A DNA stretch of 64,000 nucleotides from a virus: positions 7,020-71,019 of IMG/VR virus record IMGVR_UViG_3300009104_000014. One strand, written 5' to 3'. A program made the translations under genes and the position numbers. Positions 1 through 38,110 of the stretch are shown here, in pieces. Within the stretch, counting starts at the first letter, position 1; each line of letters opens with the position of its first letter. The notes beneath the pieces are model-generated. The model saw nothing but the letters and a program-made list of their open reading frames with translations, searched no databases and had not been told where the DNA came from.

Positions 1-20
1 TGAGCAGAGGCAGACATAGG

Positions 21-374
21 TTGCTACAAACGCGAATCTACGATTGGTTGAGCGAAGGTAGAATAGCAACTGCCACAGAAATAATTGATTGGTATAAATC
101 AGCATTCAAAGGTGGATATACGAATGGGAAGAAGCCGTATGTGAGAGCGGCGAGGGGTTCGGGAAATATACCCAACGCAAGCACATTAGGCAACATCATG
201 CGTCGTAGCATTCTGTTTGAATGTGTAGAGAACGACAAGCATTCCCGCAAGCACAGAGTATGGGCGGCTCGCCCGTTAGAGGAAGTGGTAGAGAAAGCGA
301 TTCTTGCTAACTCACCACTTAGCAAATACCCCTCTTTCCTAAGGGAAGCAATAGAAATGGAGATGAAAGAATGA
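21..374 (+). CDS. winged-helix protein (DUF3860/HARE-HTH-like), paralog of 6324..6689; true start may lie upstream of the window
   Basis: Helix-'ATATEIIDWY'...'NASTLGNIMRRSILFECV' pattern; C-terminus 'PLEEVVEKAI..PLSKYPSFLREAI' matches 'PLKEAAAKAI..PIHKYPLILREAM' of 6324..6689. Confidence 0.6.
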   Translation: MLQTRIYDWLSEGRIATATEIIDWYKSAFKGGYTNGKKPYVRAARGSGNIPNASTLGNIMRRSILFECVENDKHSRKHRVWAARPLEEVVEKAILANSPLSKYPSFLREAIEMEMKE

Positions 375-796
375 GAACGAAAACATTACACACAATAGAC
401 ATAGGGCCGCAACACGGAAAGCAAACGATACTCCGCGCAATCGCGGAAGTAGACAGGTTGCTAAAGACAGGGTTATTGAGGCGACTCTCAATACAGAATA
501 GCATGATATTTGCTTATAGCCAACCTTGGGCTTCTAACTCGGAGATTCTTTACCAAATCCGATTACCATTCGATTTCAACAGAAAGCAACGAGAACCATC
601 AGACTCAGGGCCTTGGTTCACACCAACTACCGAAGAGGATAACTGGGTGCTATCTTATAGCAACGAGATATTCTCTAACCACACCTTGCTATTCGATTGG
701 CTAAACGAAGTAGTCCGAATAAATACAGGTGATAGGCTACGGATGATACCGACTGCGCCTGAGATATGGGCGGAGATGGATGGAGAGGATGAATGA
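371..796 (+). CDS. hypothetical protein
   Basis: 141-aa ORF with ATGA overlap coupling to both neighbours. Confidence 0.6.
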   Translation: MRTKTLHTIDIGPQHGKQTILRAIAEVDRLLKTGLLRRLSIQNSMIFAYSQPWASNSEILYQIRLPFDFNRKQREPSDSGPWFTPTTEEDNWVLSYSNEIFSNHTLLFDWLNEVVRINTGDRLRMIPTAPEIWAEMDGEDE

Positions 797-934
797 TGCG
801 CTCCTACGAGAGATTCACCGATGACCTTAAAACGGCGATTGCCTTAGTAGTTGATGAGGCGGTGAGCGACGAATGATATTATTCACAACGAAAATAGAAA
901 TAGCAATGGACTACAACCAAGGAGAGAGATACAG

Positions 935-1234
935 ATGAAAGAAGAAGAGATACTAAAGGACATATTGAAAGCAACGGAAAACCTTAGCCCTGCGGGGGTG
1001 AAGGCATTGGTAGAATCGTTGGTAAGGGATAGCACCCAACTAACCGTAGCGATAGTGAGATGCCTACAGGCCCTCAAAGCGATACAAGAAGGACTTGAAC
1101 CGTTGGGAGATGTTAGCAAGGACTTCCCCGAACTATCAAATAAAGTTGATGAGATAATGGAGAAGGTTATCCAATCTTGCCCTGATATATCAAGACAGGT
1201 AATCAGGGAAAGCCTCGAAGAGGGGGTTGAGTAA
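935..1234 (+). CDS. hypothetical helical protein
   Basis: 99-aa ORF, purine-rich RBS-like sequence upstream, abuts next ORF. Confidence 0.6.
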   Translation: MKEEEILKDILKATENLSPAGVKALVESLVRDSTQLTVAIVRCLQALKAIQEGLEPLGDVSKDFPELSNKVDEIMEKVIQSCPDISRQVIRESLEEGVE

Positions 1235-1963
1235 ATGGAGAACCTAACTGCATGGGTATTATCCACAGGAAGGGCCGACCCTGTCCCTATAGATGGGCTA
1301 TGGGCGGAACAACCGTTAGATACGGACTGGGTAGAGCATCTACAACACACATACCCTGACGAGTATTGGGCTATCGAAAAGATGCTATGCAACAACTATA
1401 CCGGCGAAGCACAATTAGCAAACGCCAATACACACAACGGACAGACATTCCCACACCCTGCTGATGGAACGAGGGTAGAGATATGCGGAATCCTATACAA
1501 CCTTAGCAACCAAGACGATATACGAACACCCTACAATACCAACTTAGGTTGCTTCGTTCTACATTGGAACCAAGACAAAGACCGAGATTCGCTAAAGCAA
1601 CATTTTGTTCGTGGTAGAGTAGTTATCATTTGTCGGTATTTAGCAAAGGGTGATGAAAGAGCAGATGATTTCATACCGGCTAAAGAATATCGCCCATTTA
1701 TCGCTAAGTCTAACGAGGTCATTGCTAATTTGGAAGTCAATGAGAACCCAATTATGATTCAATTAGAGGCCGAAGGCTACAACACAAAGGCATTACGCAA
1801 CATGGTTGAGCGAGGGGCTTTAGCAAGTGTGCGTGGTATGGACTTTGAACCCGAAATGGATGAGTTGATGGAGATAGCAACCCACATCCCAATTCCGGCG
1901 TTAGAGAGAATTATGAGGTCCCTAATAGATACTGATGAGATGCAAGAATGGTTGGGGGAATGA
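1235..1963 (+). CDS. hypothetical protein
   Basis: 242-aa ORF in a tightly packed operon; no family recognised. Confidence 0.7.
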   Translation: MENLTAWVLSTGRADPVPIDGLWAEQPLDTDWVEHLQHTYPDEYWAIEKMLCNNYTGEAQLANANTHNGQTFPHPADGTRVEICGILYNLSNQDDIRTPYNTNLGCFVLHWNQDKDRDSLKQHFVRGRVVIICRYLAKGDERADDFIPAKEYRPFIAKSNEVIANLEVNENPIMIQLEAEGYNTKALRNMVERGALASVRGMDFEPEMDELMEIATHIPIPALERIMRSLIDTDEMQEWLGE

Positions 1964-1966
1964 AAC

Positions 1967-2797
1967 ATGGAAGAACAGAATGATTTGGAATTGCTAAGTG
2001 GATGGATAGATGAACTGGTAGATGCGTATGAAGATGGTATGGATAATGTGCGTTTGGCCTATGGATATTTGGTTCAACTAATGGGAGCATTACATGGCAT
2101 AGGCTTGCCTTTGGACCCTGTAGAGGGTATGTTCATTATCAAGCACAACAAAAGCGAACCCAATGTTCTACACGACTCGATAGCAGAAACACTAACGATG
2201 ACTCAAGTTAGGCGAGTCCACTTGCTAATTGATACGGCATACGAAATGATACGACAAGAGGGAACTTATCCTGAGTCATTCGTCATGCACTACTCCACTC
2301 GACTGTATGAGAATGCAGTTATACACGCACACACCGGACATTCGATACCGGCTGACGAGATGTTGATTAAGACTATGGTTGCTATAATCGAAGAAGGGCT
2401 ACCAAAGACCTACAGTAAACAGGTAGCATTTGATATTGCCTTTGAAACAAAGTTGGCCTGTTCGCAACTAACTCTACAGAACTTCGCAAAAGCAGGGGTA
2501 AGTGGCTTTATCTTAGATTCTCGCGGGTTCGTTGCTATTGATGAAGAACACATACCAAAGGAATGCGAGCAGTTCCTTGCCTTCTTGTCCCATCACTTAG
2601 ACGAGATGGGCGGTAGAGCGAGAGCAAAGGCAAAGGGCGAGGACTCGGAGAAGTTAATCGAAGAAGAGATTGCTAAAATCATGGATGAAGACGAAGGGGA
2701 AAGGTTCATCCCACCTTCTTACCGTAGGCATTTTGAGGTCGGAGAAGATATGGACCCCGATTCAGATGAGAATGACGACGAGGTAGTGAGATGGTAG
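1967..2797 (+). CDS. hypothetical protein with acidic C-terminus
   Basis: 276-aa ORF; no family recognised. Confidence 0.7.
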   Translation: MEEQNDLELLSGWIDELVDAYEDGMDNVRLAYGYLVQLMGALHGIGLPLDPVEGMFIIKHNKSEPNVLHDSIAETLTMTQVRRVHLLIDTAYEMIRQEGTYPESFVMHYSTRLYENAVIHAHTGHSIPADEMLIKTMVAIIEEGLPKTYSKQVAFDIAFETKLACSQLTLQNFAKAGVSGFILDSRGFVAIDEEHIPKECEQFLAFLSHHLDEMGGRARAKAKGEDSEKLIEEEIAKIMDEDEGERFIPPSYRRHFEVGEDMDPDSDENDDEVVRW

Positions 2798-3354
2798 ACC
2801 ACCACACAGTAAAATTGAGTATCGAATTGATACCAAGCAACTCCTATGGGAACAACCTAAGGGGCCTTCTCAGAGGTTGCACATGGGATAGGTTGCGAAA
2901 AGCAACATACGAAGAGGCAGACCACCAATGCGAGATTTGCGGTAGCAACGGATTAGCACAGGGTAGAAAGCACCGAGTAGAAGCCCACGAAGTGTGGTCA
3001 TACGACGACGAAAATAGGATTCAGACATTGGAACGACTACAGGCATTATGCCCGTTATGCCATCAAGCAAAGCACATAGGCAGAAGCCTATCCGTAGGGG
3101 CCGGAGCAAGGACCGTTAGGCATTTAGCAAAAGTGAACCGTCTGACGAAAGAGGTAGCAGAAGATTACATCAACCGTTCTTTGGAAGAGCATACTCTCCG
3201 TTCTCACGGAGATGCTTGGTTGCTAAACATAAGTCATTTACTGACTCACCCTGCATTAACAGATGCAGACATTAGAGATTTACCCTACAATGTGGATGGA
3301 GTGTTTATATCCCATCCAATATCGGGTGATAACGAACACACAACAGAGGAATGA
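2791..3354 (+). CDS. HNH endonuclease
   Basis: CEIC...EAHEVWSY...LQALCPLCHQAKH: Zn-binding HNH signature. Confidence 0.85.
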   Translation: MVDHHTVKLSIELIPSNSYGNNLRGLLRGCTWDRLRKATYEEADHQCEICGSNGLAQGRKHRVEAHEVWSYDDENRIQTLERLQALCPLCHQAKHIGRSLSVGAGARTVRHLAKVNRLTKEVAEDYINRSLEEHTLRSHGDAWLLNISHLLTHPALTDADIRDLPYNVDGVFISHPISGDNEHTTEE

Positions 3355-3358
3355 GAAC

Positions 3359-3622
3359 ATGGATAGAAATGAGAGAAAAATAGCAAGAGGAAGCCTTGTT
3401 GGGCCTATCAGAACAACGAGTGGGAACACCTACCTGCGTTTGGATGATGTTAGCGCAATAACAACCAACACGAAAGACCACGAAGCAACATTGGTGGATA
3501 TACACTTGAAGAGTGGAACAATCTTCACCGTGTATGGTAGCGAATGGCGCATAGTCCAAGCAATGGGGTTGCCAATCGAAATAATCAATGGTGGCGATGA
3601 AGGAGTTGGTATGGATGAGTAG
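3359..3622 (+). CDS. hypothetical protein (start re-assigned to ATG 3359)
   Basis: In frame with track ORF 3263..3622; ATG lies just after the HNH stop, with GAGG upstream. Confidence 0.55.
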   Translation: MDRNERKIARGSLVGPIRTTSGNTYLRLDDVSAITTNTKDHEATLVDIHLKSGTIFTVYGSEWRIVQAMGLPIEIINGGDEGVGMDE

Positions 3623-3767
3623 TGACTGGGATTACTTTCAAGCAGAGCGAGATATGGGGCAGGTCTGCAAGCACTTAGCAAGCGCGAGCGCATCCAAGGC
3701 CATTAAGTCAAGAGCAACAAAGTTGCTAAACGCTATCACAAAAGAAGCAGAGGAACGGTCGGCATGA
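3615..3767 (+). CDS. small hypothetical protein (50 aa, not in ORF track)
   Basis: MSSDWDYFQAERDMGQVCKHLAS...; fills the gap and has an ATGA overlap with 3764. Confidence 0.55.
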   Translation: MSSDWDYFQAERDMGQVCKHLASASASKAIKSRATKLLNAITKEAEERSA

Positions 3768-4120
3768 AAGACGAATTGTTAGAACACATTTGGTATTACG
3801 AAATGGCCGATGAGAGGATGGAACGAACCACAGAGATATGGGATGAGATGGCTGACGACTTCATGCGCTCGCATGGTTGGGATGGGCCACACTTGGCGTA
3901 TGATACTAACAGAGATACAGGCACACTATGGGTGCTAATTGGTAGCAACCAAGTTGGCCTTGACTTAGTAGAGATATGGGAAGACACCGGTATTCCTGAG
4001 AGAGAAGGGGATAGGTTGCTAACTTCAATGTATGATTACGCAGAAGAACTTGCTTACGAGAACTGGATTATTAGCGGAGATGCCTTAGAATGGGAAGGGT
4101 GGTCGCCTGACGAAGTATGA
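3764..4120 (+). CDS. acidic hypothetical protein
   Basis: 118-aa ORF, translationally coupled. Confidence 0.65.
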   Translation: MKDELLEHIWYYEMADERMERTTEIWDEMADDFMRSHGWDGPHLAYDTNRDTGTLWVLIGSNQVGLDLVEIWEDTGIPEREGDRLLTSMYDYAEELAYENWIISGDALEWEGWSPDEV

Positions 4121-4133
4121 GAAATACCAAGTC

Positions 4134-4451
4134 TTGCCAACAAAGGGATTACTACTGATAGCAAAGAACGGAAAGATACAGAAAATCCGAGGGAACGAAG
4201 TATCAGTTAGATATGAAAGTAGCAACGCTACCTATTCGGAAGAGGAATGGTTTTGTCTGTTAGACAAAATCGGCGTGTGGATAATAGCGAGAAGCATCGT
4301 ATCAGCACCTGTTCAAATAGCAAGTAGCGTCTTAGCAGACCCAAGTCTAACTTGTGCTAACGCAGTATGGGCGGCTATGGAAGATAGCCAACGAGAAAGG
4401 TATACCCGCCGAAGACCAAAGTTGTTTGAGATGGAGTGGTTGAATGAGTAA
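4134..4451 (+). CDS. hypothetical protein
   Basis: 105-aa ORF with TTG start; start uncertain. Confidence 0.5.
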   Translation: MPTKGLLLIAKNGKIQKIRGNEVSVRYESSNATYSEEEWFCLLDKIGVWIIARSIVSAPVQIASSVLADPSLTCANAVWAAMEDSQRERYTRRRPKLFEMEWLNE

Positions 4452-4650
4452 AGACGAGCCACCGTTGCTACATTTAGCAAATGTAAACGGTCCTATTTGC
4501 GGATTCAAATATGAATCCAAGTGGAATGAAGAGATGCAAGAATACGAATGCACTTTCCCAAAGAAATACCTTGACGATTCACTAACTAAATTACGACCAC
4601 GATGCCCTGATTGCTTACGGGTTTATAGGGAGCAGTATACCAAGGAATAA
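4444..4650 (+). CDS. small putative Zn-binding protein
   Basis: H..ICG...CPDC pattern in 68 aa. Confidence 0.55.
   Translation: MSKDEPPLLHLANVNGPICGFKYESKWNEEMQEYECTFPKKYLDDSLTKLRPRCPDCLRVYREQYTKE
4619..4630 (+). promoter_or_regulatory. archaeal TATA-box promoter (GGGTTTATAGGG class) driving the non-coding region
   Basis: Same motif lies 29-32 nt before ATGs at 6324, 11679, 15723 and 19111; here +30 falls on 4652, the start of a long stem. Confidence 0.7.
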
Positions 4651-4651
4651 T

Positions 4652-4781
4652 TGGTGGTAGTTAGAAAGAGTTGCTAATCTAACCGAGGGGTCGTATTTGT
4701 ATTACAGAAAAGGCCGATTGTTGGTGAAGCATTTGTTGTTATTGTTTGTCTTTCTTGTGTCCCTCTTTCTAATTACCACCA
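4652..4781 (+). ncRNA. putative structured ncRNA 1 (~130 nt)
   Basis: 19-bp closing stem 4652-4670/4763-4781 (one G-U pair), irregular internal hairpin, U-rich internal strand, no credible ORF, starts at predicted TSS. Confidence 0.6.
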
Positions 4782-4790
4782 CACACAAAA

Positions 4791-4986
4791 GGGGGAATAG
4801 CAACTAAAGACTGGCGCGGCTAACGAAAACAAGGTGTTAGCCCAAAACCTATACCATGTTCGGTCTAAATGTGGAAGTAATTAGCCACAGTATAGGGATG
4901 ACGGCATCCCGCGAATCGTATGAAAGAAGGATAAGCCAAGAAGGGTCGGAGAGAGATTAGACAATTGCGCCCGTTGCTATTCCCCC
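4791..4986 (+). ncRNA. putative structured ncRNA 2 (~196 nt, multi-stem)
   Basis: Perfect 14-bp closing stem 4791-4804/4973-4986 with nested helices 4813-17/4967-71, 4818-24/4836-42, 4863-68/4957-62, 4870-74/4885-89, 4895-4900/4905-10. Confidence 0.6.
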
Positions 4987-5001
4987 ACCTTACAATAAGA
5001 G

Positions 5002-5346
5002 ATGAGTAAAATGGCAAACAGAAGAAATAAACATCGTTTAACCAAGCGTGGAAGATGGGATAGAAGCAAGGCTTTGGAATGTGCCGCAAGGTATCTCGTT
5101 GAACAAGGCAGACCATTGTCTGCCGCCACCGTATATGATAACATGAGATTCAAAGATAGAAGGAAGAGAGATGGGGGCGGTATTGGCAATCTCTATAGAA
5201 ACAATAGAACCGCACAATCATACGGACAAATCGCGGCAAGGATGCTAAGATGCCCTGCCTTTAAGCAAATTGGCAAAAACCCAATCCTTTTCTCTTGTGA
5301 TGCAGAAGCCTATGAAAATTGGTGGCCGGTTGACCCACTACAATAA
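5002..5346 (+). CDS. basic winged-helix protein (DUF3860-like paralog)
   Basis: 'RYLVEQGRPLSAATVYDNM...SYGQIAARMLRCPAFKQIG' wHTH pattern. Confidence 0.55.
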   Translation: MSKMANRRNKHRLTKRGRWDRSKALECAARYLVEQGRPLSAATVYDNMRFKDRRKRDGGGIGNLYRNNRTAQSYGQIAARMLRCPAFKQIGKNPILFSCDAEAYENWWPVDPLQ

Positions 5347-5391
5347 ATGCTCAAGCAAACCGTGATATATCCGTAGATACCTACTCGGTAT

Positions 5392-6120
5392 ATGCGACAC
5401 CCGTTGCTATTCGGTGGGAACTTCCTACTTACAACACCGGATTTGATAGAAGTTGTAGATTTCAAAGCATGGAGAAAGGTAAACAACCCAAGAGAGAATA
5501 GAAAAAGACGCAGATTCTCACCGTATCTAACACTTAGATGTGGGGAAACCTTGCTAAAATTGGTTGGTTATAGTGCAGTATGGGAGTTCTTAGATGCAAT
5601 CCAGCCTGATTTACCAAGAATACCAATCAATTCGGTTATGAAAGGATATGAGTTCTATGATATAGAAACCATGTCTTTCTTGGAAGAGGTTGCTTGGTTC
5701 TTGGTAGAGAGTGATGAAGCGTTTATTGGATTCAAGATAAACGATAATGGTTTAGCAAGAGCAGTCAAGAAACCACTTAGCAACATCCCGATAGCCAGCA
5801 AAGAATACACAGGAGCGTCAGAATTGACGCTTTTTGATGCCACAAGATATTATGTTGCTATCTTAGAAAGCAAATGCACCAGCAAATACTTTGTTTACAC
5901 CATAGGTTATGGTGTTAGACCCCTGAAAGGAAAGGTGTTTAGCAAGATAGATGAAGCGCAGATGTATGCTGTAAGAACCACCCATGAGATAGCAAGCACA
6001 GAGAATGTTATCGGCCACCAAATCCTGAGGTTCGGGATGTTTGATGAAGAGGTAGATTCATTGGAGAATGAGTTATTCTTTCAGTTATTGAACGAAACTG
6101 AAAACCAAATTACTACTTAG
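5392..6120 (+). CDS. hypothetical protein
   Basis: 242-aa ORF; TATA-like TGATATAT 29 nt upstream (leaderless). Confidence 0.7.
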   Translation: MRHPLLFGGNFLLTTPDLIEVVDFKAWRKVNNPRENRKRRRFSPYLTLRCGETLLKLVGYSAVWEFLDAIQPDLPRIPINSVMKGYEFYDIETMSFLEEVAWFLVESDEAFIGFKINDNGLARAVKKPLSNIPIASKEYTGASELTLFDATRYYVAILESKCTSKYFVYTIGYGVRPLKGKVFSKIDEAQMYAVRTTHEIASTENVIGHQILRFGMFDEEVDSLENELFFQLLNETENQITT

Positions 6121-6290
6121 CAGTAAAGCGGTTTGCTAATTCTTTCTATTCTCTATAGGACATTAAGGGAATATACTGTAGTATAACTCCCTGATATACC
6201 CCTTGAACAATAAAAAGAATAGAAAAAGTGTGATACTGCTCCGCAGTAATATGGTCTAAAATGAACAGAAACAATAGAAAGAATAAGTGG
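6072..6290. repeat. ~215-bp imperfect palindromic element, copy A (origin-like)
   Basis: ATTCTTT at 6075 and 6139, AAAGAAT at 6214 and 6278, CAGTA/TACTG pair, central TATACT-gt-AGTATA; homologous to 59695..59910. Confidence 0.75.
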
Positions 6291-6300
6291 GTTTATACGG
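6289..6300 (+). promoter_or_regulatory. TATA-box promoter of the helicase operon
   Basis: GGGTTTATACGG about 32 nt upstream of ATG 6324. Confidence 0.65.
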
Positions 6301-6323
6301 ACAACCACATACCATAGGTATGA

Positions 6324-6689
6324 ATGGGTAGCGGAAGAGCAGGTCAAACAAAGAGATTACAACAAACCGTCTATAGGCTGATACAGGAAGAGGGGCCGGC
6401 TACGGCTGATTATTTAGCGCGTCGCTACAATGACCGCCCTTATCATGCTGGCAGACAGACTCGCGGTATGAATCACGGAACCAACGCAAGAAGGTTAGCG
6501 GCAGTTATGGCTACAAGTGTTCTATTCGAGCCGGTAGGTGTAGTGAATATACCAAAAGTGGGGGCGGTTGCTATGTGGGGAACTGTCCCTCTGAAAGAAG
6601 CGGCCGCTAAAGCAATTGCTTCTAAAAGGCCCATACACAAATACCCACTAATACTACGCGAAGCAATGAAGGAGATGATGATACAATGA
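6324..6689 (+). CDS. winged-helix protein (DUF3860-like paralog)
   Basis: 'LQQTVYRLIQEEGPATADYLARRY...TNARRLAAVMATSVLFEPVG'; clear paralog of 21..374. Confidence 0.65.
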   Translation: MGSGRAGQTKRLQQTVYRLIQEEGPATADYLARRYNDRPYHAGRQTRGMNHGTNARRLAAVMATSVLFEPVGVVNIPKVGAVAMWGTVPLKEAAAKAIASKRPIHKYPLILREAMKEMMIQ

Positions 6690-8763: not shown

Positions 8764-9007
8764 AAAAAGGGTTCACTTTATCCATTCTTGTTTAGAATAC
8801 TTGCTAAAAGCGGGACCGACTACTACCATAGAACTTATTGATAATGTTCGCAATAGTAGAGGTAAGAAGCACCATTATAGACCAAGTGTCGCTGAGTTGG
8901 GGCAGTTATTGAGAATTGATAAGAGGTTTGTAGTAGTAGGGACTACTACAGAATCCATTAGTCTATGGTCATTAGCAGAAGAGTTAGCAACAGGTGAAGA
9001 GGAATGA
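8750..9007 (+). CDS. winged-helix protein (DUF3860-like paralog)
   Basis: 'LEYLLKAGPTTTIELIDNV...PSVAELGQLLRIDKRFVVVG'. Confidence 0.6.
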   Translation: MVMRRKRVHFIHSCLEYLLKAGPTTTIELIDNVRNSRGKKHHYRPSVAELGQLLRIDKRFVVVGTTTESISLWSLAEELATGEEE

Positions 9008-9051
9008 CTGATATATCACTTAAAGGAAATATGCTTTGAAGAGGACTGAAC

Positions 9052-9153: not shown

Positions 9154-9156
9154 ATT

Positions 9157-11225: not shown

Positions 11226-11253
11226 TATACCCGTATTTGTCTGTATTGAATAG

Positions 11254-29653: not shown

Positions 29654-32600
29654 ACAGGCACACCTTGTCCTCGTAGGTTCATTATTACCCCTTCGGACAC
29701 TCTATCTATTGCTTCGTCTAAGGTCACTCCGTTAAACACATTGGTTTGCATAATCTCAACACGATGTAGCAAACTTTCTACGCCACCTTGAGTGATTTGT
29801 CTGTAAATGGCTCCTTGGAATTGCGCTTGGTTGCCGAAAAACAACTCTTCTCTCTTGCTATCGAACTCATTAAGTGCTTCTAAGGCAGTTCCGGTTGCAT
29901 CACCAAACGCTGATACACCATTCCCCACATTAACCAATAATTCAGCATAATAATCAGCCACCGCTACACCTGCGGCTTCTGCTTCACGGACTAATTCAGC
30001 ATTCATCTCTTCCATTATTTGGTTTCTTTCTTCCGCGCTATCGTAAACTGTGGCTACTCCTGTTATCCCATAACCTATATTATCTCCAATGTAAGAATAC
30101 ATTTCCAAGTAATTTTCTAAGTCTTGTTCGGTCATAAGCCCTGCTTGCCACATCGCGGCATTATGTTGCATAACAGAATAATTCATTTCCGCTATAAAAT
30201 TAGAGGGGTCCGTCATCCACTCCATAGTTAGGTTTTCATAATCCATGTGGCCTGTTTGCCAAGGTTTGTGTAGCCCCCCCGTATAATCTTGTTCTGTTTT
30301 TGATAAAGAATTGTGAGCATCATTTAATGCGCTAACCTCTTGTGTTAATCTATTGTAATATCCAGCCTTTGTTTCCAAAGCAATTAGTTCTGCTTCGGTA
30401 TAGTTATCAACATCTTCTGATAACTCCGTGTAATAATCATATTCCTTTTGTAATGAAGCAAGCGACGAAGCAGTTAGTTCTGCATCTGCTCTTAAGTCAT
30501 TGAAAGTAATTCCACCCAAAAGAGCCTCGTCTACTCGAACATCACCTTTCTTTGATAAGTCTGTAAGTGTAGTATGGAATTGGTTTAAGTTTTCCGTCAC
30601 ATCATTTATTGATTCCAAATCACTTACAAAATCGTTATCCGGCTTAAACTTCTTCCAAATAAGACCACCAATTGCTAACGCCGCTATTGCGGCTATACCA
30701 CCACCTAAAGCAACCATAGCCCCTCTTGCTAAAATTGCTCTTGCGGCCATACCTTCGGCGGATTTACCCACCGCCCACATAGATGCGCTCGCACCCGCAT
30801 TAACAATTGTTCCACCTATTAGAGAAGCGTTCATTAAATCTTGATTATGTGTGAACATGGCAGTCATACCAAGTAAACCATTCATAGAAGTCATCATACT
30901 ATTTACTGTAGTTTTAGTGGCTTCGGCGGTTCCGAACATTTGGTTTTGAACATACTCTTGAGTTTCAGCAAAATACAAGAATGTTGCGGTTAGAAGGTTT
31001 GCTTCATCACCTAATGATTCCATGTGGTGTTCCAAACTATTTAGAGTTAGTTCAGTTGCTCGGTTTCTCTGTGCTAATTGGTCATTAGCATTTATTAGAC
31101 CTTCAATACCTACTCTTTCTTCACCTAATGTTTTGATATTTTCTTGTCTAAGGTTTATTTCTGTAAGAGTATTCATTGTTTCTTCTTCGGATAAATCATC
31201 AAGTTCCAGTCTTCTTCTTGCCTCTGCTAATAAAAGTTGTTCAGTTAGCATCCTTTCGTTATTTGCTTGTTGCCTTACTGCTAAATGAGTTAATTCATCC
31301 TCAGTTAATTCAGTAAATAAAACAATATGGTTTGCTAAATAATCTGCTTCTCGTTGAATATGACCCAAAAATTGCCTCTGTTCCTTTTGTTGATTTGCTC
31401 TAAAACCAGCACTAAGAGTATAGTAATCAAGTTGCCCTTTCATTACTTCTTCTTGAACTGTGCGTATTCGCATTAGTGCCTGTGCTTCACCATCTTTCAT
31501 AATCAACATTTCATTATGTTCGGCTATCTTTTGCACCCTATACTCTTTATCCAACATCAACTCATTGCTTCTAAGTTGTTTCTTGTAAGTGTCTATTTGT
31601 CCCATTGCTATTACTTCTTGATGAATCCTCTCAATAGCCCTGTCGTGGCTTGCTTTGGAACTGGCCGCATTTGCTTTTTGTATGTTGATTTGTTGGATGC
31701 TTTGATTTATTGCGCCCATCTGTGCCGCTTGAATATCTTTGATTGCTTGTATTTCTTCGTGAGCGAACTTCTTTCTTAGAGCGGCATCTTGTTCTCTCAT
31801 AAACAACCTTCTTTGGAAGGCTTCTGTGTGCATATTTTCCATTTGGTTAGTTTGTTTGAGGATAACTTGGAGTGTTTTCATAGATACAAAGATATTTCCT
31901 ATTCCCATAAGGAAGTTAATTGGAACTTCCATTTGTTGCATTGTTTCAGCAAGAAACATCAAATTACCCATAAAGGTGTTCATTCTTTTCCCAACGCCAA
32001 TACCCATGAACTTAGTTTGTTCATCGGTTATCTTCTCAAGACCCTGTAGGAAATAGTATTGCGGCCCCATTGCTCTAATGTAAGCATCAACAAGATTCTC
32101 TCCCACTTCTACTCTTAGGTTCTCAATAGCGGCATTTGCCTTATCAATTTTGAAAACATCTGATGCTTGCCTGTTAGCGAACTCGTCTGCCGCAGTATAG
32201 GCTCCCGAATAGGCCATTTCATTTAGAGTTAGCAACCGTTCTTGGTTTTCCAACAACTTCTGCAATTTTACATAGTGTCTGTTTCCGGCTACTGCTTGTG
32301 TTAATCTAACCTTTTCAAGGTCTTCTAACTCTTTGTAATAAGGAGTAAGTTCTGTAATAATTTCAGTTAGACTCATCATAGAGATTTCTTGGGCTTCTAA
32401 GTGTGGTATAACCTCGGCCAAAGCCAGCGAAGCATCTCCACCGTCTACTGCTAATCGAGAAAATATCATACGCAGACCCGTTCCCGCTCTGCTTGTTTCT
32501 TCTCCAGCCTCAAGTAGCATGGCGGCTAATGCGGCCATACTTCCCATTGTTTCTCCAGCAAGATTAGCCTGAGATGCAAATTGGTTGAGAACGAAAGTCA

Positions 32601-33228
32601 TGTCTTGCATTGTAGCAACGCTTGAGTTCTCAATAGTGTTTAGTTGGTCAAGAACTCTTATTGTATTTCCACGAATGATATTGGCTTGTTCCATAGGCTC
32701 TAACATATCATACTGCGCCTTAGTTAATCCGCCCATGTGGAATTGTGTTTGTTGCATTAGGCTTGTTAGTTTCTTCATTCCCTCTTGGGTTTCCATATTT
32801 CCTATTTCAGAAAAGAGAAGCCCCATTTCTGTTCCTGTAATAACTGCTTCTTTACTACCCAAAACAGACTTCATTTGAGCCATATTAGCGGCGGCTTTAA
32901 GTGCTTCTGCACCACTAAAACCAAAGGTTTCTCCAAGTCTTTTTGATTCATCAGCAAAGAATTGCACATCTTCTGCCGAACCTTGATAGAACTTTCTAAC
33001 TTGAATCATTTGCTCTTCAAAAGCATAGAAAGCATCAATTTGTTCTTGGATTAAGTCGCTAACTCCTTCTACTGCGAACTGGACTGCTTCTACAACGCCC
33101 CCTGCGGCATCGAGTAAGATTGCTTGCATGACCGTTGAAGTGGATTCAACATCTTTGAGTAGCCTTTGAGCCTGAAAAGAACCCACTACCTCGAAGAATA
33201 CTCTTGCCGAGCCTGTTCGTGAAGCCAT
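29650..33228 (-). CDS. tail tape measure protein
   Basis: 1192 aa, helical, TP901-type core 'AGEETSRAGTGLRMIFSRL', hydrophobic segment, follows the tail chaperones. Confidence 0.9.
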   Translation of the reverse strand: MASRTGSARVFFEVVGSFQAQRLLKDVESTSTVMQAILLDAAGGVVEAVQFAVEGVSDLIQEQIDAFYAFEEQMIQVRKFYQGSAEDVQFFADESKRLGETFGFSGAEALKAAANMAQMKSVLGSKEAVITGTEMGLLFSEIGNMETQEGMKKLTSLMQQTQFHMGGLTKAQYDMLEPMEQANIIRGNTIRVLDQLNTIENSSVATMQDMTFVLNQFASQANLAGETMGSMAALAAMLLEAGEETSRAGTGLRMIFSRLAVDGGDASLALAEVIPHLEAQEISMMSLTEIITELTPYYKELEDLEKVRLTQAVAGNRHYVKLQKLLENQERLLTLNEMAYSGAYTAADEFANRQASDVFKIDKANAAIENLRVEVGENLVDAYIRAMGPQYYFLQGLEKITDEQTKFMGIGVGKRMNTFMGNLMFLAETMQQMEVPINFLMGIGNIFVSMKTLQVILKQTNQMENMHTEAFQRRLFMREQDAALRKKFAHEEIQAIKDIQAAQMGAINQSIQQINIQKANAASSKASHDRAIERIHQEVIAMGQIDTYKKQLRSNELMLDKEYRVQKIAEHNEMLIMKDGEAQALMRIRTVQEEVMKGQLDYYTLSAGFRANQQKEQRQFLGHIQREADYLANHIVLFTELTEDELTHLAVRQQANNERMLTEQLLLAEARRRLELDDLSEEETMNTLTEINLRQENIKTLGEERVGIEGLINANDQLAQRNRATELTLNSLEHHMESLGDEANLLTATFLYFAETQEYVQNQMFGTAEATKTTVNSMMTSMNGLLGMTAMFTHNQDLMNASLIGGTIVNAGASASMWAVGKSAEGMAARAILARGAMVALGGGIAAIAALAIGGLIWKKFKPDNDFVSDLESINDVTENLNQFHTTLTDLSKKGDVRVDEALLGGITFNDLRADAELTASSLASLQKEYDYYTELSEDVDNYTEAELIALETKAGYYNRLTQEVSALNDAHNSLSKTEQDYTGGLHKPWQTGHMDYENLTMEWMTDPSNFIAEMNYSVMQHNAAMWQAGLMTEQDLENYLEMYSYIGDNIGYGITGVATVYDSAEERNQIMEEMNAELVREAEAAGVAVADYYAELLVNVGNGVSAFGDATGTALEALNEFDSKREELFFGNQAQFQGAIYRQITQGGVESLLHRVEIMQTNVFNGVTLDEAIDRVSEGVIMNLRGQGVPV

Positions 33229-33230
33229 GC

Positions 33231-33518
33231 TTAATCATTCTCCATATTACCAAACGCCTCATTTAACACTTCCCCTAAGCCTTGAGCATCTATCATAGCC
33301 GCTCTACGCTGATTTCGCTTATTAACGGCCTTTTTAGCCCTTCTTGAAGCGGCGGCGGGGGAATCTTGGTCTGCTTGCTCTGTTATTCTTTCAGAGATTT
33401 CAGATGCTACCGCCAAGTCTATTTCCATCATGTGTCTTCCGCCCTCTTGTGCATATTTCATCCTTAGTTCACTCGGCAAAATGCCTTTGAACGAAGAACA
33501 TAACGCAGGGGCTACCAT
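33231..33518 (-). CDS. tail assembly chaperone, gpT-like part (reached by -1 frameshift)
   Basis: Lies in the -1 frame of the upstream ORF and is open from the slippery site. Confidence 0.75.
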   Translation of the reverse strand: MVAPALCSSFKGILPSELRMKYAQEGGRHMMEIDLAVASEISERITEQADQDSPAAASRRAKKAVNKRNQRRAAMIDAQGLGEVLNEAFGNMEND

Positions 33519-33871
33519 CAGGAACTCGACAAAGGGATACCGCCCCCTTCATCGTCGCCCCTAACAAATCTAAGGATTTCTTGTAGTTCTGAGGAAGTCA
33601 AATCGTTTACATCAACATTTTCCGAGAGAATACATAATGGAACCCAAGCCGCTATTTGCGCGGTTGGGCCGCAGTCTGCTTCGTCTAAAGCCTCTGCGAA
33701 TTGCATTTGTTGGTCTTCTGACCACTCTAAGGGGTTAGGTCCAAAGTCGCGCATTGAGCGAAACACTCTTGCTTGCTTTGCATCTAATTCTAATCGTTCA
33801 AGTCCTGATACTTGGCGCACCAAGACCTTGCTTCCGTCATCTAATTCTATTTCTTTTTTCAATACTGGCAT
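33518..33871 (-). CDS. tail assembly chaperone gpG-like
   Basis: Position between tail tube and tape measure; ends with slippery heptamer. Confidence 0.8.
   Translation of the reverse strand: MPVLKKEIELDDGSKVLVRQVSGLERLELDAKQARVFRSMRDFGPNPLEWSEDQQMQFAEALDEADCGPTAQIAAWVPLCILSENVDVNDLTSSELQEILRFVRGDDEGGGIPLSSS
33530..33536 (-). other. -1 programmed ribosomal frameshift site C CCT TTG
   Basis: Minus strand ATC CCT TTG TCG AGT TCC TGA; -1 frame reads CCC TTT GTC GAG TTC CTG ATG GTA GCC into the gpT ORF. Confidence 0.8.
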
Positions 33872-33914
33872 ATTTTCTCACTCTTTACTATACTAATCTA
33901 TTCTCTAACTAATC

Positions 33915-34100
33915 TCATGTTTCGTAGGTAATATACGCAATGTAATTATTACCTGCGGCCTTCTTGACGATGGTAATATCGTGGATAATATCACCATTTG
34001 AAAGTGTCCTAAGGAAGGTTTGCACACTTGCTCCTAAACCAGTATGCGAGCCAATAATAGTATTGACTGTTAAATTGCTTGCGGCAGTTATGGCTCCCAT
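33915..34100 (-). CDS. small virion-module protein
   Basis: 61-aa ORF with AGGTGA RBS. Confidence 0.65.
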   Translation of the reverse strand: MGAITAASNLTVNTIIGSHTGLGASVQTFLRTLSNGDIIHDITIVKKAAGNNYIAYITYET

Positions 34101-34110
34101 TTAATCACCT

Positions 34111-35157
34111 TCACGCATCCAAATCTACTTTTGCTCCACCTGTGAAGGCCGTAGATGCAGATGAGAAGGTAATTTTAGCCATCTCTGTTTCTGTTTCGTC
34201 ATACAATCCAATAAAGTTGACCGACATTGTTTGACTATCTCTACCGCTTACACTTGTCTGTGGGGCCTCATAATGAACTTTGTGAATATCTAATCGAATC
34301 GAGTTGCTTGCATCTACATAGAAAAGCATTGAAATGGCTGGCGCGGCCGCGCTTCCATTTACTAAATCTCCAGTTAGTAGATTAACGAAATCAGGTTCGT
34401 TAGTTGCCACATCACCAGCCAAAACATTCTTGTGGAATGTAATAGTCCCCGAAACCTCTCTTAGGCCCAAGGGTGGGTTGCGTGTGCAGGTAGAATCTCC
34501 TAAATTGTATGAGTTATCAATATCTCTGTTGGTTTTAATATCAACAGAGATGCTTTGAACCAACTTGGAATATGCAGAAGTAGTTGCCGCTCCCTCAAAG
34601 TTCACATAAGCACCTACGAAGTGTGCCGCATCTCCGGTATAATCATAAGAAGGGGTTGCTAAAGTTCCGGGGGCTACTGCCGCTCCGGTTGCTAAACTAA
34701 AGTTGCTTCTCATACCAGTTGTATTAAAGGAAATCATAGCGTATTCGCCAACGGATGCGCTAATCGAACAACTTTCAATAGCCTGACCAGCATACAAGAA
34801 CTCCTTATCATCCCTACCAACTCTGAAAGTAAATGATTTGAGCAAACCGGAACTTAGTTCTGTAAGAGTATCATTGGTTCCGGGGGTTCCACCGGGGGTG
34901 TGTGTGCCGAAAAGACCGTGTAGACACATCATAGTGAATCTATCAGGTTGTAGAGGCATTGAAAAAGACCCATCAGCATAATGCTTTGAATCCATTGCCT
35001 TTTGCGTTCCATATCTGTTCATATCTGAGCGTTGTAGAACATCAAAAGACTCTTGAAATCCTTCATCATCAACTTCACCGTATGCGGTTGCGCTGACTGG
35101 GGTTCCAAAGGTCGCTTCCTTCCCAACTGCTACATATCTATTTGCGAATGTCGTCAT
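34111..35157 (-). CDS. major tail tube protein
   Basis: 'YVAVGKEATFGT' start, 'SFTFRVG', 'GLREVSGTITF' tail-tube motifs; start re-assigned to 35157. Confidence 0.85.
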   Translation of the reverse strand: MTTFANRYVAVGKEATFGTPVSATAYGEVDDEGFQESFDVLQRSDMNRYGTQKAMDSKHYADGSFSMPLQPDRFTMMCLHGLFGTHTPGGTPGTNDTLTELSSGLLKSFTFRVGRDDKEFLYAGQAIESCSISASVGEYAMISFNTTGMRSNFSLATGAAVAPGTLATPSYDYTGDAAHFVGAYVNFEGAATTSAYSKLVQSISVDIKTNRDIDNSYNLGDSTCTRNPPLGLREVSGTITFHKNVLAGDVATNEPDFVNLLTGDLVNGSAAAPAISMLFYVDASNSIRLDIHKVHYEAPQTSVSGRDSQTMSVNFIGLYDETETEMAKITFSSASTAFTGGAKVDLDA

Positions 35158-35205
35158 GTCGTCGCCTCTAAACCAATACACTCTGTCTGTGATATTTAAC
35201 TGTTA

Positions 35206-36291
35206 TCATATCTCTCTACGAGTCATGTTTACTCTCTTCATGTATGATAAATTAAGTTGGTGGATGCAAACTGCCTCATCTTCATCCATTTTTGTATCAA
35301 ATGTTAGATTATACCCAATTAAGGAATCAATACTGCCCTCTAAACCAGTCTTAGTATACAGTTCATCAAAACATTCCCCTAAGATAGAAAGACCCAATCT
35401 ATATGCGTTTTTGTAATCTGTTCCTCTTGTAGTCACATATAAATCAATAGTATAATCTTGCTCTGTATTTGCTCCGGCCAAAGTATTGAATTGGGGGGAT
35501 GCAGAAGTAGTAATAACTACATGAATAGTGGGTGGAGTAAGTCTACTTACCATACCACTCGATAAATCATAGCCATAAATGATAGAGGAAGGGGTCACAT
35601 GGTTCTTAATGAAGAATCTCTTAGAGTTCTTGAGAACTTCTACTACAGATAACCCAGTTCTAATAAAAGATGTAGTCACAAAATCGCTAATGTCCATTTC
35701 ATCAGGTGAATATGCGCCTTGTGTAGTGCAATAAACGAGTTCCCAATCTAATGTTCCTGTAGTATTGCCCCAATAAATACCACTACTACTGGATGAAGAC
35801 CCTGTGACGCTCAGATAATGCGTGTTTGCATCATCATCCTCTATAATGTCGTCAAAATACAACTCAGCCTTGCCGTTTGAGTCTAAAGTAAGCCTTAGTA
35901 AAACAGGAACAGACCAATCTTCGCTTGCATCCAAATCCAAATCCGATTTAGTAGCAGTAGTAGCACCAACTAATTTGATTTGCTCGTTGCTACTTGCTAT
36001 TTGCACTTCTGCTCTATGAGTCCCATTATCAATAGCCATAACGACTTCATCAGCATCCGGTTTAGCAACATAAACAAAACTGGCAACGAGAGTGTTGCTA
36101 TTTCCAGCACTTACTTTCCATGTTTGTCCCCCCGAACCACTTACTATTCTCCAATTACTATCATTTGCCGAACCATCTCCAGCACTTCCAGCACTTAAAG
36201 CCCAATCTACATTGTTTGCTCCATTAGCACTACTTGGGTCTGCCAAATTAGTTCTACTGGTCCAATAATGAGTTCTATCCGATATAGCCAT
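35206..36291 (-). CDS. probable tail terminator/neck protein with N-terminal lectin-like beta domain
   Basis: Immediately upstream of the tail tube; C-terminal ~150 aa resemble a tail-completion fold. Confidence 0.5.
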   Translation of the reverse strand: MAISDRTHYWTSRTNLADPSSANGANNVDWALSAGSAGDGSANDSNWRIVSGSGGQTWKVSAGNSNTLVASFVYVAKPDADEVVMAIDNGTHRAEVQIASSNEQIKLVGATTATKSDLDLDASEDWSVPVLLRLTLDSNGKAELYFDDIIEDDDANTHYLSVTGSSSSSSGIYWGNTTGTLDWELVYCTTQGAYSPDEMDISDFVTTSFIRTGLSVVEVLKNSKRFFIKNHVTPSSIIYGYDLSSGMVSRLTPPTIHVVITTSASPQFNTLAGANTEQDYTIDLYVTTRGTDYKNAYRLGLSILGECFDELYTKTGLEGSIDSLIGYNLTFDTKMDEDEAVCIHQLNLSYMKRVNMTRREI

Positions 36292-36292
36292 T

Positions 36293-37021
36293 CTATACAC
36301 TTCCACTTCTAAATCCTAATGCGCTTCCCAAGAACTCAAGTCGCCTTGGTATCCACTTTTCTCTGAAATCTTCTCTAATCATATTTTCCATAAAGGCAGT
36401 ATAATCATATCTTTTCCTACCTGTAAATCCGGGGTGCTTGCCCTTTAGCGACATTGGTAATGAACTCATTACGCTATATGGGTTTACACCGGCCGCTTTC
36501 TTTGCGACTCCATGTCTAACAGAAGACCTTACAGTAGGTGGTAGATTGGTTAATCTACCCTTTTTTCTATAGGTGAATGGACTCATACCGCGCTTTACTA
36601 TCTGAGCAATGGTTTTCTTTGTATTTTCAGGTTGTCTTTGACCCTTAACACCATAAGGAAGTGGAAAAGAACCCGCTCTTACTATACCATCAGGCATAAC
36701 CTCTGCATCCAAAGAGTCAGCAACTCTTCTGTATATACTCTTGGTTGTTTTGAATTGTCTTGTTGGTGGTAGTGATTGGTTCCATGTTGTAGGGTCTTTT
36801 TTCTTGAGTTGTGCTTGAGCCGCAGGTATTACCTGTGATTTCAAATAGCCCCAAATCTCATACGCCAACCATTGTTTTGAATCATTTATTTCCGTATCCA
36901 AATCTTCTATGGCTTTAATAAGCCCTCTATCATAATACCCTACTCTAAATTGAACGGCAGAACCCATGTTTGCCCCACCACTACGGCGGCGATAAGGGGA
37001 TAATTGGCGGGTATACGGCAT
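36293..37021 (-). CDS. basic neck/tail-completion protein (HK97 gp10-like position)
   Basis: Basic, 'HPG' near C-terminus, synteny. Confidence 0.45.
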   Translation of the reverse strand: MPYTRQLSPYRRRSGGANMGSAVQFRVGYYDRGLIKAIEDLDTEINDSKQWLAYEIWGYLKSQVIPAAQAQLKKKDPTTWNQSLPPTRQFKTTKSIYRRVADSLDAEVMPDGIVRAGSFPLPYGVKGQRQPENTKKTIAQIVKRGMSPFTYRKKGRLTNLPPTVRSSVRHGVAKKAAGVNPYSVMSSLPMSLKGKHPGFTGRKRYDYTAFMENMIREDFREKWIPRRLEFLGSALGFRSGSV

Positions 37022-37560
37022 TAGTCAACACTTCCAAGGTGGGCTAAACGAGATAGATTATCATTTCCTCTTGACCTTAGAGTGTTAGTTCTCAAACCAC
37101 CATCCCTTAAACCACCTTGCTGAAACACAGAGTCATCTTCTAAGTAGTAGGATGCGGCTAAATCAGCGCAAATCTCTCTAATAACATGAGCAAACTCTCC
37201 TTCTTGAACGGTCACACCGGATAAATGGTCTGCGGATATTCCTGATACACCAGTTAAGGTATGTGTAGATTTACCAGTCCACGAAAACGAATCTCCATCT
37301 ATATTCCCATTACCAGCAGAGGCAAAAGAAGCACCATCGGTTAGAAGTATACTCGTAGCACCTGCGGCAACTGCGCCATTCAAAGTGGTTTCGCCTATTT
37401 CTCTGCTTGGTGCATCTCTTCCATAATCCCTAAAGGCTTGGTCTATATCTATTGTAGCCCTTCTGATAGCACTTGTTAATCTTGTAGCGGCTCTGCTTCT
37501 TTGTGCAGAATCAAGACCTAATCTTTGGCCCACATCAGCATTAGAACAATAATAACTCAA
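37021..37560 (-). CDS. head-tail adaptor (gp15/gp36-like) with inserted beta module
   Basis: 'YYCSNADV', 'AIRRATIDID', 'IREICADLAASYY'; TTG start at 37560. Confidence 0.7.
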   Translation of the reverse strand: MSYYCSNADVGQRLGLDSAQRSRAATRLTSAIRRATIDIDQAFRDYGRDAPSREIGETTLNGAVAAGATSILLTDGASFASAGNGNIDGDSFSWTGKSTHTLTGVSGISADHLSGVTVQEGEFAHVIREICADLAASYYLEDDSVFQQGGLRDGGLRTNTLRSRGNDNLSRLAHLGSVD

Positions 37561-37805
37561 AGAAACACACCCGCTAAGAAACACAATGCACAGAGCCTCA
37601 AGGCCCACACTATTCTGTTCATTAAGGTCGCTGACCTATCAATCTGTCGGTCATATTTAACCAACTTTTCGTATTGTATATTCTGTATTGTAGTAGCCAT
37701 CGCTATTACCCTCTCTTCTAAAGTGTGTATTCTCCATTCTATTCGAGAAAGTTCAGGGTTAGGTTCCCGCTCTGAATCCACTCCTTTACTGTCTGAACCT
37801 CGCAA
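37557..37805 (-). CDS. small coiled-coil membrane protein (start uncertain)
   Basis: C-terminal hydrophobic helix. Confidence 0.4.
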   Translation of the reverse strand: MRGSDSKGVDSEREPNPELSRIEWRIHTLEERVIAMATTIQNIQYEKLVKYDRQIDRSATLMNRIVWALRLCALCFLAGVFL

Positions 37806-38110
37806 AACTCGCCCCCCTCAATGTGATAGCCTACCGGCGTTATCAAATAGGTTGCGAAGGTCGTATAAACGCTTCCTTCAAAGTCGGTTTCGTTATTAGC
37901 CGTTCCATTAAACACTATGTAGTAATCAGTATTTAAGTAATTTGTTTCGTAGTATTTATCAACCACATAACCCTCTACCCAATAACAATCATCCGTAAAT
38001 ATCAAGCCTGACGGCTTGTAAGGGGATAATGCACTTGCAGTAATAGTAATCAGAACCACAAAAAAAAGAAACAAAGCACCGCCCTGTTCTTCGTAGTCCG
38101 AATCTAACAT
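37739..38110 (-). CDS. membrane-anchored protein
   Basis: N-terminal transmembrane segment 'ALFLFFVVLITITASAL'. Confidence 0.6.
   Translation of the reverse strand: MLDSDYEEQGGALFLFFVVLITITASALSPYKPSGLIFTDDCYWVEGYVVDKYYETNYLNTDYYIVFNGTANNETDFEGSVYTTFATYLITPVGYHIEGGEFCEVQTVKEWIQSGNLTLNFLE

Follow-up and report, generated by a model that had tools for sequence, protein, structure and literature searches.

What accounts for the abundance of one short word in a viral genome? The DNA considered here is a stretch of 64,000 bp ("the window"), bases 7020-71019 of a 71,019-bp viral contig whose sequence is found in marine metagenome runs. The word is the hexamer TTGCTA together with its reverse complement TAGCAA: 104 and 85 copies, respectively, giving 189 in the window and 224 in the whole genome. 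By z-score against an order-1 Markov model this pair ranks first among all hexamers (189 observed vs. 38.8 expected, z = 24), and the hand counts of the earlier note that described it are exact (43 copies in positions 1-6000, 25 in 22700-29600, 6 in 53400-59400 and 6 in 59900-64000). The word is selected at the level of the DNA duplex, independently of codon usage and of palindrome avoidance. The reading that we favor – with a probability of roughly one half – is that TTGCTA is a recognition word read by a sequence-specific DNA-binding factor and kept by selection on the duplex.

Selection of the word on the DNA duplex

Sites inside genes number 178, distributed over 65 open reading frames (ORFs). 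Free permutation of synonymous codons within each ORF predicts 56.9±6.3 (maximum 80 in 100 shuffles). A stricter shuffle, which keeps protein and codon usage and is barred from creating the five absent tetramer palindromes or any absent hexamer palindrome, predicts 72.5±6.6 (maximum 85 in 30 shuffles): the enrichment holds with avoidance preserved. All four stop-free frames are used (TTG-CTA 34, xTT-GCT-Axx 55, xTA-GCA-Axx 54, xxT-AGC-AAx 35), orientation relative to the coding strand is exactly balanced (89 sense: 89 antisense), and in the word-rich domain described below the density is 5.0/kb between genes vs. 4.55/kb within them. The earlier statement that copies fall on both strands and in different frames, and are not a simple codon effect, is thus borne out: a codon or dipeptide effect is ruled out by frame use, by the codon shuffles and by equal codon usage in both halves of the genome, while a signal at the level of RNA is ruled out because sense and antisense copies are balanced. 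The word also extends beyond six bases. G precedes it in 94 of the 189 copies and A follows in 106; G follows in none, because CTAG is absent from the genome. The fuller form is GTTGCTAA, which together with its complement TTAGCAAC occurs 46 times (9.4±2.9 expected).

A passive origin was weighed with the help of relatives of the genome under study (G000). G003 is 86.8% identical to it at the nucleotide level (codon alignments of 63 ortholog pairs); G006 and G007 share 87-88% identity in the terminase and 76% in the family B DNA polymerase (PolB); G001, whose PolB is 65% identical, carries with G002 the sister word TTGCAA; G004 (record L067) and G005 lack the word and serve as controls. In G000 the tetramers CTAG, GATC, GTAC, AGCT and ACGT are all at zero, as are 47 of the 64 hexamer palindromes in 71 kb. 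On a passive account, the word would have accumulated because restriction sites are avoided (TAGCTA or TTGCAA turning into TTGCTA), because certain codons or dipeptides are preferred, or because mutation is biased. TTGCTA is indeed one change away from both TTGCAA and TAGCTA, which are forbidden (zero copies) in G000; the 4-mers AGCA, GCTA and CTAA are enriched; and in positions 1-33228, where 152 sites are observed, Markov models of order 0 to 4 predict 20.8, 21.8, 31.1, 94.9 and 122.9, the excess remaining when 4-mers are preserved and being nearly absorbed when 5-mers are.

The codon shuffles speak decisively against such an origin, and the relatives contradict it too. G001 shows the same avoidance (CTAG, GATC, GTAC and AGCT absent, ACGT present twice, 47 of 64 hexamer palindromes absent, although the set is not identical to that of G000), yet its 44 TTGCTA-type sites are at the order-1 expectation of ~39. 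G006 and G007 contain 362 and 375 copies of CTAG, 281 and 229 of GTAC and ~100 of ACGT, yet they carry the word: GTTGCTA occurs 142 and 153 times, vs. 13 and 16 for the reversed word. The idea that TTGCTA is a sink for avoided AGCT and CTAG is rejected, because avoidance occurs without the word and the word without avoidance of CTAG. In addition, one-mismatch variants of the word stand at just 0.6-2.6 times expectation, codon usage is equal in the word-rich and word-poor halves, and synonymous positions within the word are conserved. A passive by-product is effectively excluded, and we give it almost no weight.

Palindrome avoidance has features of its own. The palindromes tolerated differ among relatives: G003 has 59 copies of CTAG, and G004 has AAATTT, GAATTC and AGCGCT. 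Of 41 tabulated PolB-related loci (8 kb or longer), none has AGCT and none has GATC more than once; both tetramers do occur in L079-L083, which are more remote terminase relatives. Four non-palindromic hexamers (AAATTC, CCAGAA, ACCAGA and ACCAGG) are also at zero in the window, where 25-55 copies are expected, which hints that asymmetric sites are avoided too.

A word-rich and a word-poor domain

The sites are unevenly distributed: 158 lie in positions 1-38000 (4.2/kb) and 31 in positions 38001-64000 (1.2/kb). The earlier note had described a density gradient and a genome-wide site; what is found instead is two states. The ends of the contig overlap by 119 bp, indicating a circular or permuted assembly, and through these ends the rich domain extends leftward from the window, across the 7,019 bases that precede it, back to ~62.9 kb. 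The rich state thus runs from ~62.9 kb via the contig ends to ~33 kb, and elsewhere the density is near the codon null (33 sites in the word-poor domain vs. a summed codon-null expectation of ~26). Selection is limited to the ~40-kb early/replication half, and this is true of both clades: G001 displays the same rich/poor pattern, on the same genes.

The boundary is clearest when sites are expressed as the occupancy of slots, a slot being a place where the protein sequence would allow the word. In 3-kb bins occupancy is 0.12 (58,982-61,981), then 0.27 (61,982 to the window end), then 0.50-0.68 in the next three bins, which after the wrap through the contig ends cover the 7,018 bases before the window and continue to window position 1,981. 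From ~62.9 kb, via the contig ends, to ~29 kb, the bins of G000 have an occupancy of 0.44-0.70; the value drops to 0.35 and then 0.18 across the 2329-aa and tape-measure genes, and is 0.12-0.29 over the tail, fiber, head, portal and terminase genes, compared with 0.10-0.17 in word-less relatives.

The genes so divided are those of an uncultured, marine tailed virus of ~71 kb with archaeal-type replication genes. The plus strand encodes a clamp-loader-like AAA+ ATPase, a deoxynucleoside monophosphate (dNMP)-kinase-like protein, PolB, and PD-(D/E)XK and ERCC4 nucleases; a long minus-strand block encodes the 2329-aa protein, tape measure, tail tube, collagen-like fibers, capsid and portal; the Mre11-like phosphoesterase and large terminase are again on the plus strand. 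The right half of the window contains a second group of hexamers in excess (CCAGTA, CAGTAG, AGGTCC, GGACCA), which derives from the collagen-like coding repeats of giant repetitive proteins and is no DNA word.

Three simple explanations for the poor half fail. Codon-bias constraint in structural genes is ruled out, since usage of the component codons outside the word is equal in the two halves. Recent import of the poor half is ruled out because four-fold sites are equally saturated in both halves (G000-G001 identity 0.39 vs. 0.43). A gradient linked to replication finds no counterpart in GC/AT skew, which follows gene strand and switches at ~22.7 and 59.8 kb, off the domain edges.

The position of the edge bears on a further possibility. 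Chi, the word of RecBCD and AddAB, is read on one strand and is strongly biased in orientation; its protective effect grows with density, and like the viral word it is short, lineage-specific and over-represented. A Chi-like signal would slow a processive nuclease or load a recombinase at DNA ends and would be densest at packaged ends, as in a headful series that starts at a pac site close to the terminase gene. The sharp edge beside the large terminase gene with decay ~40 kb away suits this idea, as do a density in which more is better, built from independent single sites, and the PD-(D/E)XK, ERCC4 and Mre11-like enzymes of the virus; moreover, ends that are entered from either side would call for sites in both orientations or for a palindromic one. 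Known Chi sites, however, are biased in orientation, whereas the sites here are balanced everywhere, with no polarity in 5-kb bins; one form of the word is palindromic; and no enzyme of RecBCD/AddAB type was identified. The 119-bp overlap, for its part, shows only a circular or permuted assembly and not physical ends, and the assembly of G003 is opened at another place. With no bias in orientation (104:85 in the window, in addition to the balance relative to coding strand), the Chi-like recombination signal of the earlier note loses its footing, and we consider it improbable.

Conservation and dialects among relatives

If the word is selected, then its sites should outlast neighboring sequence. 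In the codon alignments of G000 and G003, 153 of 188 sites are unchanged, compared with 99.5±6.5 expected from other hexamers in the same gene and frame; where the encoded amino acid is conserved, third codon positions agree in 94.0% of cases (315/335) within the word and in 79.7% outside it. BLAST alignments of four genome pairs, in which word hexamers were compared to words of the same composition, agree: identity is 82% vs. 57% for G000-G003, 69% vs. 40% for G006-G007, 94% vs. 87% for G001-G002 and 43% vs. 18% for G000-G006. The sites are under purifying selection, above background in all four pairs, and the synonymous conservation on which the earlier note had staked its proposal is present.

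Conservation of individual sites does not extend to the sister clade. Only 18 of 144 sites in G000 coincide with TTGCAA in G001 (0.43 expected if independent), and 17 of the 18 fall in conserved hydrophobic-Ala-x tripeptides, where each lineage uses its own synonymous spelling. Density per gene is nevertheless correlated between the two genomes (Spearman 0.78 for 43 ortholog pairs of at least 300 bp, four shorter pairs having been dropped; 0.67 in the rich half alone). Because sites rarely coincide yet densities correlate, we infer that density, rather than position, may be what matters. The fraction of slots filled is 0.41 in G000 (203/494), 0.44 in G003 and 0.40 in G006 and G007. TTGCAA fills 196 of 305 slots in G001 (0.64), rising to 72-83% in the replication half. 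In the controls, the filled fraction of TTGCTA-type slots is 0.10-0.17 (G001, G004, G005), and that of TTGCAA slots in G005 is 0.07. The PolB gene is densely written in both clades, with 14 TTGCTA-type sites in G000, 14 in G003 and 15 copies of TTGCAA in the G001 ortholog.

The word is the property of a small clade of marine viruses, in which it takes several forms, or dialects: TTGCTA and GTTGCT(A) on the side of G000, and TTGCAA in the sister clade. The top word of G000 and G003 is TTGCTA (224 and 226 sites, 5.3-5.4 times expectation); that of G006 and G007 is GTTGCT (252 and 269 sites, 8.0 times expectation), usually with A next; that of G001 and G002 is the palindrome TTGCAA (213 and 185 sites, 7.3 times expectation in G001), with A/T favored two bases out on both sides. 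More distant relatives (PolB ~50%) have no such word. TTGCAA is wholly absent from G000, where it fills none of 262 compatible slots, and from G003, G006, G007 and G004; in G005 it has normal frequency. Its absence here, against 213 copies in the sister clade, suggests a forbidden palindrome as the cause: the asymmetric dialect may have arisen because this clade, like most relatives, cannot tolerate TTGCAA, TTGCTA being perhaps the nearest usable spelling.

Some further observations concern these words. Each genome has 16-18% more slots compatible with its own word than the other genome offers for that word, which suggests that the choice of amino acids has in places been shaped by the word as well. 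Of the 213 copies of TTGCAA in G001, 28 run through a cysteine codon (frame xxT-TGC-AAx) and 68 through Leu-Gln. G004 has 88 copies of TATGCTACAAA(TTT), 56 of them intergenic, in a single 12-kb early region (~44-56 kb of its record); they are spaced at ~15 bp and resemble operator or iteron arrays. These arrays share the core TGCTA, but were rejected as the same phenomenon, being clustered and mostly intergenic.

A palindromic dialect invites comparison with HIP1 (GCGATCGC) and the alternate highly iterated palindromes (HIPs) of cyanobacteria (Elhai 2015, PMC4390886). A modification target of this kind would be marked by a host-encoded or unrecognized viral methyltransferase, with modification-dependent repair or selection creating and keeping the sites. 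In favor of this, TTGCAA reads identically on both strands over its 6 bp, as targets of type II enzymes typically do; replacement of the word by lineage has a parallel in the alternate HIPs, as reported in that paper; biased repair would also give the appearance of purifying selection; and 213 tolerated copies of TTGCAA in G001, amid the loss of 47 of 64 hexamer palindromes, suggest that those sites are protected. Six-frame searches, however, gave no match to N6_N4_Mtase (PF01555), C5 DNA_methylase (PF00145) or D12 (PF02086) in any of five genomes, other families and the host not having been searched; a virus-encoded methylation mark, as the earlier note had entertained, thus has no domain of these three families behind it. 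The dialects of this clade are asymmetric, and an enzyme acting genome-wide leaves the baseline half unexplained. We regard modification as an unlikely explanation.

The likeness to HIP1 is nonetheless real: a short word that recurs every few hundred bases to every kb, both within and outside coding sequence and at a frequency blind to frame, replaced by another word in some lineages and – according to PMC4390886 – likewise obscure in function. HIPs are GC-rich palindromic octamers of cellular genomes with which cognate orphan methyltransferases co-occur (PMC4390886), whereas the viral word is a hexamer, is palindromic only as TTGCAA of the sister clade, occupies about half of the genome, and is accompanied by no methyltransferase of the three families.

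The dialects also recall the DNA uptake sequences (DUS) of Neisseriaceae and the uptake signal sequences (USS) of Pasteurellaceae. These too are self-marking words, in both orientations inside genes, whose sister dialects differ by single letters (PMC3630211), and DUS is read by a dedicated protein, ComP (PMC3868556). Dialects by lineage are equally found here: the complete genomes fall into three groups, one with TTGCTA, one with GTTGCT(A) and one with TTGCAA. DUS and USS are 9-12 bases long and act in the DNA uptake of competent bacteria; the viral word is shorter, and a virus has no uptake step. A bias comparable to that of DUS uptake could nevertheless act as molecular drive, if a virus-encoded HNH endonuclease, or biased repair or gene conversion, favored word alleles during co-infection. 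The one-letter differences between sister clades resemble those between DUS dialects (PMC3630211), the HNH gene accompanies the word in every genome that bears it and is lacking in word-less G004 and G005, and TTGCAA has been wholly eliminated from this clade. Such an activity is purely hypothetical, however; the HNH match lies below the Pfam cut-off (19.6 vs. 21.4 bits), and drive alone leaves the restriction to half of the genome unexplained. We hold drive to be very unlikely. The word resembles HIP1, DUS/USS and Chi, yet fails a defining feature of each.

A candidate reader

A word that is selected on the duplex, blind to frame and orientation, selected for density, split into dialects and restricted to a domain fits a monomer-sized DNA-binding factor best. 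The arrangement of sites is in keeping with this reading. Distances between sites are close to geometric, although those below 40 bp are fewer than expected (15 vs. 32), and they show neither preferred inverted or direct pairing nor a helical period; one of eight periods tried, 75 bp, gave a Rayleigh z of 5.8, which we take as a result of multiple testing. These data fit sites that are read singly, and not as pairs or dimers. Clusters of at least three sites lie wholly inside genes in 15 of 16 cases across five genomes (both of those in G000 included), and the remaining one, in G001, runs into intergenic DNA: intergenic operator arrays are ruled out, every cluster being at least partly inside a gene.

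According to our proposal, the word would be written into any slot that the protein tolerates, on either strand and one copy at a time, throughout the ~40-kb early/replication half, where a trans-acting, monomer-sized, sequence-specific DNA-binding factor would read it. The candidate for this factor is c1, a predicted winged-helix protein first met as an ORF at 10023-10433, the true protein being 84 aa long. Bound at approximately one site per 200 bp, c1 would cover or label the early/replication half, perhaps so that this part of the genome is organized, protected or silenced while the late structural genes, which are in heavy use, stay accessible.

The AlphaFold2 model of c1 (mean predicted local distance difference test score, pLDDT, 79.4) comprises helices at residues 2-16, 25-35 and 45-57 and strands at 61-66 and 69-74, that is, a three-helix bundle followed by a beta-hairpin wing. 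Its best matches in the PDB are the DNA-binding domains of Zur, Fur, PadR and ArsR (TM-score 0.6-0.72; three at E≤1e-3); no RFX title, the eukaryotic likeness raised in the earlier note, is among the fold matches listed to rank 50. Fur boxes are read as hexamer units. The resemblance of the predicted fold to the Fur/Zur type goes no further than the DNA-binding domain: Fur and Zur add a dimerization and metal-sensing domain and act at few promoters, whereas c1 would be the DNA-binding domain alone, with ~220 presumed sites, mostly inside genes.

The distribution of c1 follows that of the word. Among PolB loci it is present in all four that bear the word and in none of 52 that do not, and genes that neighbor c1, the dNMP-kinase-like gene and a 144-aa ORF are present in 27-37 or more of the word-less loci. 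Just nine homologs of c1 were found in databases. All six new contigs reached through c1 (L097 and L104-L108) have TTGCTA or GTTGCTA as their top word, and the other matches are genomes already compared. Apart from one F/L exchange, the presumed recognition helix is shared by both TTGCT dialects; seven of its positions are changed in the TTGCAA clade. The helix also differs in two variants of c1, P0008 and P0009. On this comparative evidence c1 may be the protein that reads the word, an identification that we put forward tentatively.

Several points weigh against a protein-read word, or against c1 as its reader. Little of the excess is left under the order-4 Markov model, since the signal resides in the 5-mers of the word itself (TAGCA 409 vs. 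145 expected, AGCAA 430 vs. 166; 2.6-2.8-fold enrichment). The earlier note had held that the idea would fall if enrichment vanished under a null preserving codons and 4- or 5-mers: the excess survives the codon and 4-mer nulls, and under the 5-mer null its disappearance is formally approached. The rich domain does not match a transcription unit; it includes two distal genes of the minus-strand late operon and excludes the plus-strand terminase genes. A palindromic hexamer also suits a restriction or modification enzyme, and the methyltransferase negative covers three Pfam families and the virus only. The dNMP-kinase-like gene and the 144-aa ORF share the presence pattern of c1, and about a dozen further ORFs are clade-specific among the whole genomes compared. 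Since the genomes with the word all belong to a single clade, the joint occurrence of c1 and word counts as one evolutionary event. The alignment of c1 is shallow (10 sequences), and its model is moderately confident. We infer the existence of a reader, and its tie to c1, being one of co-occurrence, is suggestive.

Other genes were considered as readers. The earlier note had pointed to a family of winged-helix paralogs, for which the case did not survive comparison: an iterated hidden Markov model search with one seeded family finds two members in G000, two in G003 and one each in G006 and G007, none in the TTGCAA genome G001, and weak matches in word-less G004 and G005. The model of one paralog (pLDDT 84.9) has a best fold match at E = 9e-3, and most of the matches listed are winged-helix proteins. 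The 7 kb that precede the window encode a 577-aa AAA_5 ATPase and, after it, a 339-aa DUF7192 protein (L069:933-3719); at 27-30% identity between dialect clades, these two rank with the most divergent pairs, vs. 50-87% for most pairs of replication and structural core genes. It was rejected as a McrBC-like reader, having no match to a defense family and being more like the CobS/CobT pair, which it probably resembles in kind. A CobT VWA domain is mentioned for viruses of Poseidoniales in the main text of PMC11706807.

Kinases of the dNMP type are companions of modified nucleotides in some phages. Searches of the clade-specific ORFs against PHROGs, PADLOC and NCBIfam gave no informative match, and nothing informative came from comparison of two 240-aa ORFs with the ESM Atlas or from profile searches of the PDB with A3 and A4. 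Scans of cellular genomes with PolB and with the c1 alignment found no relative. The nearest named PolB in the GenBank phage set, at 23% identity, is from haloarchaeal tailed viruses. Gene content fits the description of magroviruses in the main text of PMC5434244; membership of that group, and the host, are only putative. Coordinates of the features are collected in Table 1.

Table 1. Positions, in window coordinates, of the domains, genes and site cluster discussed in the text.
Feature	Position	Strand	Remarks
Word-rich domain: early genes, replication module, 2329-aa tail gene, tape measure	1..33228		152 sites, 4.57/kb
Word-poor domain: tail tube, collagen-like fibers, capsid, portal, Mre11-like phosphoesterase, large terminase	33229..62887		33 sites, 1.11/kb
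Start of rich domain, sharp edge just past large terminase gene	62890..64000		Occupancy step
Gene at start of rich domain	62890..63210		2 sites
Putative HNH endonuclease	2791..3351		
Paralog, weakly winged-helix-like	6324..6686	+	Second member at ~0-371
c1, 84-aa winged-helix protein, candidate reader	10182..10436	+	AlphaFold2 and fold search
dNMP-kinase-like gene	11679..12290	+	Pfam DNMK, E 7e-11; 4/4 word-bearing vs. 0/52 word-less loci
Family B DNA polymerase	16853..19090	+	Pfam DNA_pol_B, E 1.9e-28
144-aa ORF	19232..19663		
Tight three-site cluster inside 2329-aa gene	29364..29394		Sites at genome positions 36383(+), 36399(-), 36408(-)
Giant repetitive proteins (2623, 1029, 655 aa), collagen-like repeats	41426..52419; 39447..41411	-	

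A bolder form of the proposal, which we offer as a possibility on the doubtful side, is a two-part self-marking system: a tiny winged-helix protein, and its word on up to 83% of the slots of the early/replication half, with the dialect switched between TTGCAA and TTGCTA under a restriction pressure that bars the palindrome from one clade, and the whole forming a virus-specific chromatin domain. If true, this would be a viral, protein-read counterpart of uptake-sequence dialects, and the chromatin domain would part the replicating/early half of the genome from the late structural half.

HIP1, uptake sequences and Chi are cellular precedents for a hyper-abundant word under selection, and what such words do is in many cases a matter of debate; the present example comes from viral genomes that are small and complete. 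It goes unmentioned in the main texts, supplements not covered, of four papers on magroviruses or viruses of Poseidoniales (PMC5434244, PMC8651126, PMC11706807, PMC10160649), and in library searches. The system is tractable: it offers three dialects, near-saturated synonymous slots, a domain boundary common to clades whose synonymous sites are saturated, and a short list of clade-specific genes that includes an 84-aa predicted DNA-binding protein. With small genomes, dialects, a sharp domain and few candidate genes, both the reader and the purpose of the word are directly testable despite the uncultured host. For viruses more broadly, the finding means that selection at the level of DNA can override codon choice at hundreds of positions in a viral genome, which bears on the prediction of hosts from codon usage and on models of viral sequence evolution.

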